From: a virus
Lineage: Duplodnaviria > Heunggongvirae > Uroviricota > Caudoviricetes
Reading direction: 5' to 3' (one strand)
DNA length: 64,000 nt
IMG/VR virus record: IMGVR_UViG_2684623171_000009
Shown piece by piece: positions 17,394 to 22,892 of the stretch. Position 1 is the stretch's first letter; each line of letters starts with the position of its first letter. A program made the position numbers and the translations under genes. Under the pieces are notes generated by a model. The model was not told the DNA's origin. It worked only from the letters and a program-made list of their open reading frames with translations, and searched no databases.

Positions 17394-17760
17394 TAAAAAA
17401 AGAGCCAGCGACTGACCTGAAAGAAGACGCTGGCTAAAAGGCCTTATATGTTTGTAGAGACTTATTTTTCACAGACAGCAATGATGCCTGTCAATATATT
17501 ATCAATATGCGGATTGTTTCAGTTACAGATGCTTTATTAAGGAAAAAAACAGCCAGCACTGACTTTCGGTGGAGAGGTGCTGGCTCAAAAGGATAGATGT
17601 ACTTCACATGTTGCTTCTATATGGCAGTACATTTTCTGACAGACAGTGACGGATGTTGTCAAGATATTGTGTCATTTATAACCTGAATCAGGGGGTGGCC
17701 GGAATGTTATCTGGCATTTTTAGCAGAGCCTGAATGCCATAATCACGGCTCCCGGCGTTG

Positions 17761-17797
17761 GCCGTCAGTGGGTGACACTGGCGGCTTTTTTGTTTTT
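17761..17797 (+). terminator. Intrinsic terminator upstream of the holin gene
   Basis: GCCGTCAGTG-GGTG-ACACTGGCGGC hairpin followed by TTTTTTGTTTTT. Confidence 0.5.
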
Positions 17798-17841
17798 CTT
17801 TACTTTCATTTTCTGTCGGCGGTGACGGAGACATACATCAG

Positions 17842-18048
17842 ATGGAAAAAATCACAACAGGTGTGTCATACACCACGTCAGCGGTGGGGACGGGATACTG
17901 GTTACTGCAGCTGCTGGACAAAGTCTCTCCGTCCCAGTGGGTGGCGATAGGCGTGCTGGGGAGTCTGCTGTTTGGGCTGCTGACATATCTGACGAACCTG
18001 TATTTCAAGATTAAAGAAGACCGGCGTAAGGCGGCGCGGGGAGAGTAA
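17842..18048 (+). CDS. Holin (68 aa)
   Basis: Small protein with TM segments and charged C-terminus [13 protein letters not shown]; first gene of the lysis cassette. Confidence 0.8.
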
Positions 18049-18049
18049 A

Positions 18050-18346
18050 GTGATGAAGAAAAAATACGAACTGGTTGTTAAAGGGATAAATAATTACCCG
18101 GATAAGATTACTGTTACTGTGGCACCGGAAATTGGTGGGTATCCGTCACTGTTGTTGCCAGATGTGGCGATTAGTCTTGACCGTACTGAAGGTGCCACGC
18201 TGGAGTTTTACGAAGCTGAGGCGAAAAAGCAGGCGAAGCAGTTTTTCATGGATGTTGCTGCCGGGTTATGTGAAGGGGATGGTCCGTTACCGGAAAAGCG
18301 TCCCGTAATTTTAGAGGCGCAGGATGTGTGTAAGCGTACAGCCTGA
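18050..18346 (+). pseudogene. Lysis-cassette hypothetical gene disrupted by IS insertion (intact 115-aa paralog at 50807..51154)
   Basis: Identical to the paralog up to ...EAQDV, then runs into the IS left end. Confidence 0.65.
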
Positions 18347-18400
18347 ACCGTCTGGTCAGAATCTGACGAATTAGACAAAGTGGTGTCCACCAAATAAGTA

Positions 18401-18802
18401 GTGGGAACCAAAGTATCAGATATGCAGAAAAATGTGACTCCCGGCAGGCGAAAAGGCTGCCCTAATTATCCTCCCGAATTTAAACAGCAGCTCGTTGCTG
18501 CCTCCTGTGAACCCGGGATATCCATCTCAAAACTTGCTCTTGAAAATGGCATTAACGCCAATCTGTTGTTCAAATGGCGACAACAATGGCGCGAGGGAAA
18601 GCTGCTATTACCTTCTTCAGAGAGCCCCCAGCTACTTCCTGTGACTCTCGATGCAGCTGCCGAACAGCCAGAATCGCTCGCAGAGGACCCGGAAACCCTC
18701 AGTATCAGCTGTGAGGTAACGTTCCGGCACGGGACGCTCCGCTTCAATGGCAATGTCAGCGAAAAGCTCCTGACTCTGCTGATACAGGAACTGAAGCGAT
18801 GA
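18401..18802 (+). CDS. IS66-family accessory protein (orf1/TnpA)
   Basis: First of three overlapping ORFs typical of IS66; start codon uncertain. Confidence 0.7.
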   Translation: MGTKVSDMQKNVTPGRRKGCPNYPPEFKQQLVAASCEPGISISKLALENGINANLLFKWRQQWREGKLLLPSSESPQLLPVTLDAAAEQPESLAEDPETLSISCEVTFRHGTLRFNGNVSEKLLTLLIQELKR

Positions 18803-19146
18803 TCCCGTTACCTTCCGGGACCAAAATTTGGCTGGTTGCCGGTATCACCGATATGAGAAATGGCTTCAACGGCCTGGCTGCGAAAGTACAAACGGCGCTG
18901 AAAGACGATCCCATGTCCGGCCATGTTTTCATTTTCCGGGGCCGCAGCGGCAGTCAGGTTAAACTGCTGTGGTCCACCGGTGACGGACTGTGCCTCCTGA
19001 CCAAACGGCTGGAGCGTGGGCGCTTCGCCTGGCCGTCAGCCCGTGATGGCAAAGTGTTCCTTACGCAGGCGCAGCTGGCGATGCTGCTGGAAGGTATCGA
19101 CTGGCGACAGCCTAAGCGGCTGCTGACCTCCCTGACCATGCTGTAA
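18799..19146 (+). CDS. IS66-family Orf2 (TnpB)
   Basis: 115-aa ORF overlapping orf1 stop (ATGA); IS66 Orf2-like sequence. Confidence 0.75.
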
Positions 19147-19195
19147 ATCTCTTTATCCTGGTTGTCACAGAATAAGCCCGGTAAAATACGGGCTT

Positions 19196-20734
19196 ATGAA
19201 CGACATCTCTTCTGACGACATCTTCCTGCTGAAACAGCGCCTGGCCGAACAGGAAGCGCTGATCCACGCCCTGCAGGAAAAGCTGAGCAACCGGGAGCGC
19301 GAAATAGACCATCTGCAGGCGCAGCTGGATAAACTCCGCCGGATGAACTTCGGCAGTCGTTCCGAAAAAGTCTCCCGCCGTATCGCACAAATGGAAGCCG
19401 ATCTGAACCGGCTTCAGAAAGAGAGCGATACGCTGACTGGTAGGGTGTATGACCCGGCAGTACAGCGTCCGTTGCGTCAGACCCGCACCCGTAAGCCGTT
19501 CCCTGAATCACTACCCCGTGACGAAAAGCGACTGTTGCCTGCGGCGCCGTGCTGCCCGAACTGCGGCGGTTCACTGAGCTATCTGGGCGAGGATACCGCC
19601 GAACAGCTGGAGTTGATGCGTAGCGCCTTCCGGGTTATCCGGACGGTACGGGAAAAACATGCCTGTACTCAGTGCGATGCCATCGTGCAGGCACCTGCAC
19701 CTTCGCGGCCCATCGAGCGGGGTATCGCCGGACCGGGGCTGCTGGCCCGCGTGCTGACCTCGAAGTATGCAGAGCACACCCCGCTGTATCGCCAGTCAGA
19801 AATATACGGCCGGCAAGGTGTGGAGCTGAGGCGTTCACTGCTGTCGGGCTGGGTGGATGCATGCTGCCGGCTGCTGTCTCCGCTGGAAGAGGCGCTTCAT
19901 GGCTATGTCATGACTGACGGCAAACTCCATGCCGATGATACCCCGGTCCAGGTACTGCTGCCGGGTAATAAGAAGACGAAGACCGGGCGGTTGTGGGCGT
20001 ATGTTCGTGATGACCGCAATGCAGGGTCAGCGTTGGCACCTGCAGTGTGGTTCGCTTACAGCCCGGACAGAAAAGGCATCCATCCGCAGACTCATCTTGC
20101 CTGCTTCAGCGGTGTGCTGCAAGCGGATGCGTACGCCGGGTTCAACGAGCTGTATCGCAATGGTGGGATAACGGAAGCTGCCTGCTGGGCTCATGCCCGC
20201 CGAAAGATCCACGATGTGCACGTCCGCATCCCGTCAGCACTGACGGAAGAAGCCCTGGAGCAGATCGGTCAGTTGTACGCCATAGAGGCGGATATAAGGG
20301 GAATGCCGGCAGAGCAGCGGCTTGCTGAACGTCAGCGAAAAACGAAACCGTTGTTGAAATCCCTGGAAAGCTGGTTGCGTGAAAAGATGAAGACCCTGTC
20401 GCGACACTCAGAGTTGGCGAAGGCGTTCGCGTACGCACTTAACCAGTGGCCGGCACTGACGTACTATGCGAACGATGGCTGGGTGGAAATCGACAACAAC
20501 ATCGCTGAAAATGCCCTGCGGGCGGTCAGTCTGGGTCGTAAAAACTTCCTGTTCTTCGGCTCTGATCATGGTGGTGAGCGGGGAGCGCTACTGTACAGCC
20601 TGATCGGGACGTGCAAACTGAATGACGTGGATCCAGAAAGCTACCTTCGCCATGTTCTTGGCGTCATAGCAGACTGGCCGGTCAACCGGGTCAGCGAACT
20701 GCTTCCGTGGCGCATAGCACTGCCAGCTGAATAA
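19196..20734 (+). CDS. IS66-family transposase (Orf3/TnpC)
   Basis: 512-aa ORF with N-terminal leucine zipper, CxxC zinc motifs and DDE region. Confidence 0.85.
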
Positions 20735-20897
20735 CACATCCCCGTCAATACGGCCCTCGCTGTACGCTTACGGATGTGTTGATAACCTACAGAGGAAAAC
20801 TACCGGGAATAATTACGGGTTCTCTGAAGACTCCACCGCTGGCCTGAAGACTTAACATATCCAGGGATTTGAAATCGATAAACCCTGATAAATATCC

Positions 20898-21431
20898 ATG
20901 AACGCAAAAATCAGATACGGCCTGTCGGCTGCCGTTCTGGCGCTGATTGGTGCAGGGGCGTCTGCGCCTGAAATCCTCGACCAGTTTCTGGATGAAAAGG
21001 AAGGTAACCACACCACAGCATACCGTGATGGTGCGGGTATCTGGACCATCTGCCGTGGAGCCACCCGGGGGGATGGTAAGCCTGTTATTCCTGGCATGAA
21101 GCTGTCGAAGGAAAAATGCGACCGGGTTAACGCCATTGAGCGTGATAAGGCGCTGGCATGGGTGGAGAAAAACATCAGAGTGCCGCTGACCGAACCCCAG
21201 AAAGCGGGGATCGCGTCATTCTGTCCGTACAACATTGGCCCCGGTAAGTGTTTCCCGTCGACGTTTTACAGACGGATTAATGCAGGAGATCGAAAAGGTG
21301 CCTGCGAAGCGATTCGCTGGTGGATTAAGGACGGTGGCAGGGACTGCCGTATTCGCTCAAATAACTGTTACGGTCAGGTATCCCGTCGTGACCAGGAGAG
21401 CGCGCTGGCGTGCTGGGGAATCGACAGATAA
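20898..21431 (+). CDS. Endolysin (lysozyme, signal-anchor-release type)
   Basis: N-terminal hydrophobic SAR segment; E...D...T catalytic pattern resembling phage 21 R lysozyme. Confidence 0.8.
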   Translation: MNAKIRYGLSAAVLALIGAGASAPEILDQFLDEKEGNHTTAYRDGAGIWTICRGATRGDGKPVIPGMKLSKEKCDRVNAIERDKALAWVEKNIRVPLTEPQKAGIASFCPYNIGPGKCFPSTFYRRINAGDRKGACEAIRWWIKDGGRDCRIRSNNCYGQVSRRDQESALACWGIDR

Positions 21432-21701
21432 GCAGAATATTTTGCTGAAAAATGAGGTTTGCTTACATGGACGGATAACACGAAATCCTGCAAATTGGCA
21501 AAATGTAAGTGAATAAAGTCAAAACAGTTGTTTAACACTCAGGCACCGTAATGATGCCTTTGTCATTTCTGCGCATCTCACGCGCATCTCACAACACAGA
21601 ACCTTTCAGGATGACCCTTGAGGATACCGGTTTGGCTGTCGGTGCCTTTCTGTGGGCTGGATTCCTGTGAGACAAGGTTCATCACTAAAAGGAAATAACC
21701 G

Positions 21702-22271
21702 ATGAATATGATGGCCGTGCCGTTTCACGGCAACTCTCTTTATGTAGTTAACCATAATGGCGAACCATACGTTCCCATGAAACCTGTCGTTGCGGGGATG
21801 GGGCTGGCCTGGCAATCACAGTTGGCTAAGTTAAGACAGCGTTTTGCGTCAACTATAACGGAAATCGTTATGGTTGCTGAGGATGGGAAACAACGCAATA
21901 TGGTGTCCATGCCACTTCGAAAACTTGCCGGCTGGCTACAAACCATTAATCCCAACAAAGTAAAACCCGAAATCCGCGATAAGGTCATCCGGTATCAGGA
22001 AGAGTGCGACGATGTTCTTTACGAGTACTGGACGAAGGGTTTTGTCGTTAATCCCCGTAAAATGAGCGTGATGGAAGAACTCAACCAGGCTTGTGCTGAC
22101 ATGAAACGGGATAAAAACATTGCCAGTGTGTTTGCTACCGGGCTGAATGAGTGGAAACAGGTTAAAGCCGCGCATGTATCAAAAATCCGTACGCTGGTAA
22201 ATGAAGCGAATATGCTGATTGATTTTGTCCTGGCTGATACAGGCAAAGGGAAAATAACAAAGGCGGATTGA
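21702..22271 (+). CDS. Putative antirepressor-like protein inserted in the lysis cassette
   Basis: 189-aa ORF between endolysin and Rz. Confidence 0.4.
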   Translation: MNMMAVPFHGNSLYVVNHNGEPYVPMKPVVAGMGLAWQSQLAKLRQRFASTITEIVMVAEDGKQRNMVSMPLRKLAGWLQTINPNKVKPEIRDKVIRYQEECDDVLYEYWTKGFVVNPRKMSVMEELNQACADMKRDKNIASVFATGLNEWKQVKAAHVSKIRTLVNEANMLIDFVLADTGKGKITKAD

Positions 22272-22424
22272 TGGGGTGGCTAATGATATCAGATAAACTC
22301 ATAACGCTGGTGAAGAGCCTCTGTGTACTTGTCGGCATTTCATTTTTAGTCATGCTGGTTGCCATTTTCTTTTCCACCGCCTGGCGAGTCCTGACGTTAT
22401 CGGGACTGGTGGGGTGAAAGAGAG

Positions 22425-22892
22425 ATGAACCGTGTTCTGTGTGTGGTGATTATTGTCCTGGCGGTTGGCTATGGTGCGCTGTGGCTGGCAACAAACCATT
22501 ACCGTGACAACGCGCTCACCTACAAAGCGCAGCGCGATAAAAAAGCCAGAGAGCTGGAACAGGCGAATGCCACCATTACTGACATGCAGGTGCGCCAGCG
22601 TGATGTTGCTGCGCTCGATGCAAAATACTCGAGGGAGTTAGCCGATGCGAGAGCTGAAAATGAAACTCTGCGTGCTGATGTTGCCGCTGGTCGTAAGCGC
22701 CTGCGGATCAACGCCACCTGCTCCGGTACCGTGCGTGAAGCCACCGGCACCTCCGGCGTGGATAATGCAACCGGCCCCCGACTGGCAGACACCGCTGAAC
22801 GGGATTATTTCATCCTCAGAGAACGGTTGATGACAATGCAGAAGCAGCTGGAAGGGGCACAGGACTATATCCGCACTCAGTGCCTGAACTAA
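22425..22892 (+). CDS. Spanin inner-membrane subunit Rz
   Basis: N-terminal TM, coiled coil, ...AVNHYRDN... and C-terminal TQC; resembles lambda Rz. Confidence 0.8.
22645..22830 (+). CDS. Spanin outer-membrane lipoprotein Rz1 (embedded +1 frame)
   Basis: Lipobox LPLVVSAC and proline-rich [23 protein letters not shown], as in lambda Rz1. Confidence 0.75.

Follow-up and report, generated by a model that had tools for sequence, protein, structure and literature searches.

The ISEc8 copy and the gene it interrupts

The window considered here, namely the whole 64,000-nucleotide stretch recorded as IMG/VR entry IMGVR_UViG_2684623171_000009, carries two prophages, A and B, placed in tandem as Sp12 and Sp11 are in Sakai, and an insertion sequence (IS) that splits a YdfR-family (DUF1327) gene within the lysis cassette of prophage A. 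Upon comparison with annotated elements, this IS is almost certainly a complete copy of ISEc8, of the IS66 family, inserted in the ydfR-family gene of an Sp12-like prophage, and nothing contradicts the identification of the element. The following features lie at the locus:

18053..18346, + strand: 5' part of the YdfR-family (DUF1327) gene, 92 native codons followed by 5 IS codons (CKRTA) and a stop (PF07041, 4e-44, profile positions 1-85 of 93)
18322..18329, no strand: left copy of the target-site duplication, GGATGTGT (sequence read)
18330..20771, + strand: ISEc8 (IS66 family), 2,442 bp, complete (100% identity to RefSeq-annotated copies)
18330..18351, + strand: left terminal inverted repeat (IRL), beginning with GTAAGCGTACAGC (sequence comparison of the ends)
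18422..18802, + strand: tnpA, 126 aa, helix-turn-helix accessory protein (PF01527, HTH_Tnp_1, 1.6e-12; NF047595, IS66-like TnpA)
18799..19146, + strand: tnpB, 115 aa, IS66 Orf2 accessory protein (PF05717, 1.2e-38; NF033819)
19196..20734, + strand: tnpC, 512 aa, DDE transposase (PF03050, 2.1e-106; PF13007, PF13005, PF13817; NF033517, 459 bits)
20750..20771, - strand: right terminal inverted repeat (IRR; sequence comparison of the ends)
20772..20779, no strand: right copy of the target-site duplication, GGATGTGT (sequence read)
20773..20847, + strand: 3' remnant of the YdfR-family gene, in which the duplicated D and V codons precede the 22 final codons and the stop (sequence and translation)

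Along its 2,442 bp the element is 100% identical to copies annotated as 'IS66-like element ISEc8 family transposase', TnpA or TnpB, and copies sharing this complete identity are located at unrelated chromosomal loci as well as on pO157 in many O157:H7 genomes. Relative to the repeat_region of Sakai Sp12 curated as 'ISEc8 Family: IS66', it shows just 2 mismatches (99.9% identity). ISEc8-like sequence is in general widespread, being found in 4,231 of 5,426 Escherichia coli genomes, with 23,806 ISEc8-like places in that collection. 

The element is occupied by three consecutive genes on the same strand, tnpA, tnpB and tnpC, each of them displaying IS66-family signatures, and the three proteins score above the curated cut-offs of NF047595, NF033819 and NF033517, respectively (97.7 bits against a cut-off of 74 for TnpA, whose gene coordinates also equal those of RefSeq WP_001171554.1). 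TnpC combines leucine-zipper, zinc-finger, DDE and C-terminal IS66 domains, and its match to PF03050 (DDE_Tnp_IS66) is full length, spanning positions 1-283 of the 284 in the profile. Members of the IS66 family are characterized by imperfect terminal repeats of ~20-30 bp beginning with 5'-GTAA, as well as by an ATGA overlap between tnpA and tnpB. Both traits are seen here: the start codon of tnpB overlaps the stop codon of tnpA (-1 phase) in the ATGA at 18799-18802, while the terminal inverted repeats are of 22 nt, start with GTAA and are imperfect (18/22 complementary, 82%), the first 13 nt, GTAAGCGTACAGC, being identical at the two ends of the element. Together with the near-identity to annotated copies and with a target duplication of 8 bp, the size described for IS66 (PMC6778807), all the features that define the family and ISEc8 at the level of sequence are present. 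Thus, the intact IS66-family element with inverted repeats and three open reading frames (ORFs) that a first-pass annotation of this DNA had described is borne out and can be named more specifically as ISEc8, a copy that is presumably active.

The duplicated octamer, GGATGTGT, is read directly at 18322..18329 and at 20772..20779, with exactly 2,442 bp (18330..20771) in between. The chance of meeting an identical 8-mer beside a given pair of ends is ~1.5e-5, although this chance origin becomes irrelevant because empty sites are available for comparison. The two copies are perfect and the octamer is single at those empty sites, so that the duplication noticed in the first-pass annotation holds. 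The octamer covers codons 90-93 of the interrupted gene; upon entering the IS, the ORF goes on from ...EAQDV through five IS-encoded codons (CKRTA) before it reaches a stop. As had been read before, the gene that lies between holin and endolysin is split after ...EAQDV, with the small correction that the break itself lies one base into codon 93. As a consequence, 92 of the 114 native residues are kept and 22 are lost, and this truncated DUF1327 protein is the only certain effect of the insertion. 

The truncation hardly lowers the PF07041 score, which goes from 155.2 bits for the intact YdfR copy to 149.2 bits for the truncated one (cut-off 25). RefSeq already annotates a YdfR pseudogene lacking its C-terminus at this locus, with tnpA, tnpB and the ISEc8 transposase next and a DUF1327 remnant after them. 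Regarding function, the YdfR-family gene matches phrog_406, annotated as 'unknown function', and a literature search on ydfR/DUF1327 function found no text mentioning ydfR together with holin or endolysin.

The reverse complement of GGATGTGT also occurs within ISEc8, at 20734-20741 (minus strand), 31 bp from the right tip and overlapping the tnpC stop codon, and the octamer is found 10 times in the window, where ~2 occurrences would be expected, an excess due in part to the duplication between prophages A and B. Both observations are probably a coincidence.

Considering what is known of the family, TnpC, assisted by the accessory proteins TnpA and TnpB, would have cut the ydfR-family gene with a stagger of 8 bp and inserted ISEc8 there, the target being an Sp12-like lambdoid prophage next to ynfA in E. 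coli O157:H7, and repair of the staggered cut would then have produced the duplication of GGATGTGT. We infer this transposition chemistry from family knowledge.

Empty sites and age of the insertion

The uninterrupted version of the target is found in the same window, within the adjacent prophage:

50810..51154, + strand: intact paralogous YdfR-family gene of prophage B (Sp11-like), with a single octamer at 51079..51086 that constitutes the empty site

When the 300 bp to the left and the 300 bp to the right of ISEc8 are joined and one repeat copy is removed, the product exhibits 0 differences in 600 positions relative to 50787..51386, and in silico excision of ISEc8 with one repeat copy restores a 114-aa ORF identical to the YdfR protein of prophage B. 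This comparison with the single, uninterrupted octamer at 51079..51086 was the check proposed in the first-pass annotation, and its outcome agrees with an insertion into a site of that same sequence. More than 20 other O157:H7 genomes moreover contain the reconstructed empty site as a single piece of 2,500 bp without a mismatch (100% identity), and the YdfR family protein is intact in every one of them. In one of these strains, ECP19-2498, the empty site was confirmed to belong to the same ynfA-adjacent prophage. Sp12 of Sakai likewise carries an uninterrupted gene, ECs_2260, at the corresponding site, the identity being of 97-99.8% (99.8% upstream and 96.9% downstream of the site).

Only six of the 5,426 complete E. 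coli genomes combine the two junctions, namely FRIK944, FRIK2455, FRIK2533, FRIK2069, 2-6-2 and BB24-1, the true count being that of the search with the right junction. The search with the left junction returned 284 genomes at coverages of at least 80%, and in 278 of them the hit was made by joining two separate pieces from Sp17-type prophages, in which YdfR and endolysin genes occur with a partial ISEc8, an arrangement different from the insertion described here. With so few carriers, the insertion is recent and lineage-specific. In addition, the two repeat copies are identical, the flanks are undiverged and ISEc8 is identical to its sibling copies, features that point to a recent single gain in a small sublineage. 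Thus, as judged from these comparisons, the insertion happened recently and is limited to a small sublineage of O157:H7, in agreement with the recent origin that had been proposed from the paralogous site, now also reflected in the orthologous site of ECP19-2498, in the uninterrupted Sp12 site of Sakai and in the low number of carriers.

Two other explanations for this pattern have to be considered. The insertion might be old, the empty sites being then secondary products of precise excision or of gene conversion from the paralogous prophage, and the 600-bp stretch lacking any difference between prophages A and B around the site makes such a conversion conceivable. Nonetheless, this course is highly improbable, since only six genomes carry the insertion versus many O157:H7 genomes with a 100%-identical 2.5-kb uninterrupted site, to which the Sp12 site of Sakai adds; since neither ISEc8, 100% identical to other copies, nor its two repeat copies have diverged; and since a single gain is a far more parsimonious account than many precise losses, each independent of the others. 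Even harder to credit is an assembly artefact, by which a repeated IS would have been misplaced during genome assembly. ISEc8 is certainly multicopy, each O157 chromosome listed having 11-17 full or partial matches, and repeats of such kind are known to cause misassembly, but six complete genomes, sequenced independently and in different laboratories, show the identical junction pair, and a misplacement would not produce a perfect 8-bp duplication of an octamer that is single-copy at the empty site. Hence, recent transposition of ISEc8 into a previously intact gene is the explanation retained here.

The prophage that carries the insertion and its defects

A comparison of 47.7 kb of the window (16273-64000) with E. 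coli O157:H7 FRIK944 gave an identity of 99.98%. Prophage A, the one that carries ISEc8, begins beside ynfA and corresponds to Sp12 of Sakai, prophage B corresponding to Sp11. In prophage A the integrase has been reduced to a truncated, frameshifted pseudogene, and a frameshift is also annotated in the portal gene; strains with the empty ydfR site show the two defects as well. Contiguous prophage A stops at 31465, with 19,341 bp absent relative to Sakai Sp12, a deletion in which the tail genes were lost altogether, together with J, lom, the tail fibre gene, the nleG pseudogenes and an older ISEc8 except for a short remnant. This remnant, at the deletion point (31465-31531), is 67 bp from the left end of ISEc8 in inverted orientation, with a truncated head-tail connector gene joined to one side of it and a partial ISEic2 (IS256 family) to the other. 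One endpoint of the deletion is within the IS, so that it is not a classical adjacent deletion from an IS terminus. 

The deletion junction is common to 7 of the 5,426 genomes, including ECP19-2498; this strain having the junction and an empty ydfR site, the deletion is older than the insertion. For the same reason, the older ISEc8 at the Sp12 end had probably already been deleted before ydfR was hit. That older copy was also considered as the source of the new one, a candidate that the many copies with 100% identity leave undecidable.

Several further differences are found in this region. The deletion junction is contiguous with the ynfA prophage in the FRIK strains and in the window, and it lies ~0.37-0.43 Mb from that prophage, there with a full tail module, in 2-6-2, ECP19-2498 and BB24-1; this differing position points to a large inversion in which similar prophages would have recombined. 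At 30140-30732, within the gene that RefSeq calls a frameshifted portal, a 162-bp (54-codon) tandem repeat is present in 3.7 copies, with 97% matches and no indels, and the Sakai copy is only 87-91% identical across these portal repeats. Finally, the IS1203/IS629 copy that Sakai has between a dinI-like gene and ISEic2 (locus L008, 4372-5681) is absent in the window (32501-32504), where the two alignment blocks share 4 bp, the overlap that an empty IS629 site would leave.

Expected consequences for lysis and comparison with known systems

The genes that surround the insertion in prophage A are:

13310-13999: Q gene, intact ORF
17842..18048, + strand: phage-21-type class II holin, 68 aa, upstream neighbour (PF04971, 7.3e-33; phrog_9876, holin)
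20898..21431, + strand: endolysin (lysozyme), 177 aa, downstream neighbour (PF00959; phrog_7)
21702-22271: Ant-like gene between endolysin and spanin
22425..22892, + strand: Rz-like spanin (phrog_13, 8.5e-75; phrog_524)

The P21 S-family holin, the lysozyme-family endolysin and the Rz-like spanin form one same-strand cluster downstream of Q, that is, a phage-21-type lysis cassette. Downstream of Q, both prophages also contain tRNA genes, at 14210-14459 in prophage A, with three of them (CAT anticodon, assigned to Ile by RefSeq, Arg-TCG and Arg-TCT), and at 46969-47221 in prophage B, with two of them and without Arg-TCG. The holin and endolysin proteins of both prophages are identical, prophage B being 30 kb away, while the two prophages differ by ~4.5% downstream of the insertion site (20772..22892; 20772..22882 in prophage A corresponds to 51079..53184 in prophage B).

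The start codon of the endolysin is situated 126 nt past the end of ISEc8 and 50 nt past the original ydfR stop, a distance that implies no translational coupling to ydfR and, therefore, none to be lost by the insertion. A consensus terminator scan predicted no intrinsic terminator on the + strand within ISEc8, and a promoter scan of 17,523-21,500 found no promoter-like site, hence none facing outwards at the right end of ISEc8 toward the endolysin. Late transcription in lambdoid phages is antiterminated by Q, with the Q-modified RNA polymerase reading through terminators. In prophage A, late transcription from pR' would accordingly be expected to be Q-antiterminated and, since ISEc8 is in the same orientation and its ORFs are densely packed, R and Rz should be subject to no more than modest polarity. 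The cell, too, is expected to be affected little or not at all, because prophage A could not make virions anyway and the adjacent prophage encodes the identical holin and endolysin.

The first-pass annotation had suggested, on the contrary, that the insertion may be polar on the endolysin and Rz genes of prophage A and so cripple its lysis. An insertion strongly polar to that extent, shutting off the expression of both genes, would fit the fact that 2.4 kb of foreign DNA now separate the holin and endolysin genes, with translation ending prematurely at 18344-18346 and the 75 nt from there to tnpA left untranslated, as well as the classical polarity of IS insertions in ordinary operons. It is nevertheless unlikely when considering the absence of a predicted + strand intrinsic terminator in ISEc8 and the read-through by Q in lambdoid late operons, the Q ORF of prophage A being intact. 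Sp5 of Sakai, moreover, has an IS upstream of its lysis region and yet still transfers (Asadulghani et al. 2009, PMC2669165), which provides a precedent for such insertions not necessarily abolishing late functions. Even if real, strong polarity would be masked by prophage B and its identical holin and endolysin, and it would be moot in a prophage without a functional integrase, a functional portal or any tail genes; a phenotype at the level of the cell is thus even less probable than strong polarity itself. Crippled lysis is for these reasons left unsupported. Some aspects do weigh against our expectation of modest polarity: we infer the weak polarity and the lack of phenotype, the Q protein and pR' of prophage A being presumed to be active, the terminator scan was a simple consensus one that says nothing on Rho-dependent termination, and the loss of the last 22 YdfR residues could matter in unpredictable ways.

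A different question is whether the position of the insertion reflects something other than a neutral random hit, either a preference of IS66-type elements for lambdoid lysis cassettes as targets or selection for silencing them. Independent IS66-type insertions beside holin or lysozyme genes were found in other lambdoid prophages, in the strains OkiPb01684, DETEC-P1056 and PS3Tanimalfeces2, each with an 8-bp duplication of its own; Sp17 of Sakai has a partial ISEc8 beside its endolysin gene, and SS TX 313-1 has IS1203 in the same 2.5-kb region. Were preference or selection true, the present ISEc8 copy would represent one step in the domestication of the prophage, and a YdfR protein deprived of its C-terminus would affect the phenotype. 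We regard this as very unlikely, since these are a handful of cases against the 23,806 ISEc8-like places, and their ascertainment is biased in that the query could retrieve only such cases. The duplications of those three IS66-type copies (loci L003, 1259-3700; L004, 1259-3700; and L005, 1258-3699) are GATAAATC, GATTGATG and CAGAAACC, and no obvious consensus emerged when the four octamers, these and GGATGTGT, were compared. The other IS insertions in lysis cassettes are therefore too few, and too biased by their retrieval, to argue for a hot spot.

RefSeq already has annotations for ISEc8, for the resulting pseudogene and for the prophages around it, and the event is an ordinary and already known one. 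It is of little importance in itself, as nothing is added to the knowledge of IS66 biology or of phage lysis. Nonetheless, it offers a clean textbook case of recent IS transposition with both paralogous and orthologous empty sites, and it might serve as a lineage marker for a small cattle-associated O157:H7 group (the FRIK944 group, 2-6-2 and BB24-1).

Regarding known elements, the closest system is the catalogued ISEc8 from E. coli O157:H7, whose length of 2,442 bp, ends and three genes all match those of the present copy, with only the insertion site being different. IS66 and IS679 are reportedly the prototype and the functionally studied members of the IS66 family, said to have been described by Machida in 1984 and by Han et al. 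in 2001. They share with ISEc8 the tnpA-tnpB-tnpC order, the ATGA overlap, the repeats starting with GTAA and the 8-bp duplications, although at the sequence level ISEc8 is a separate element.

Regarding known prophages, Sp12 of Sakai is orthologous to prophage A, being at the same chromosomal site, in tandem with Sp11 and with the same gene order, ECs_2260 standing between the holin ECs_2261 and the endolysin ECs_2259. It differs in that its ydfR gene is uninterrupted and its tail/nleG region of 19.3 kb is still in place, as is a full-length ISEc8 at the end of the prophage, an element of which the window retains only 67 bp. The IS629 of Sp5 resembles the present insertion in being likewise an IS within a lambdoid late operon upstream of the lysis genes; on the contrary, it belongs to the IS3 family, it disrupts no coding gene and it resides in a prophage that is otherwise functional.

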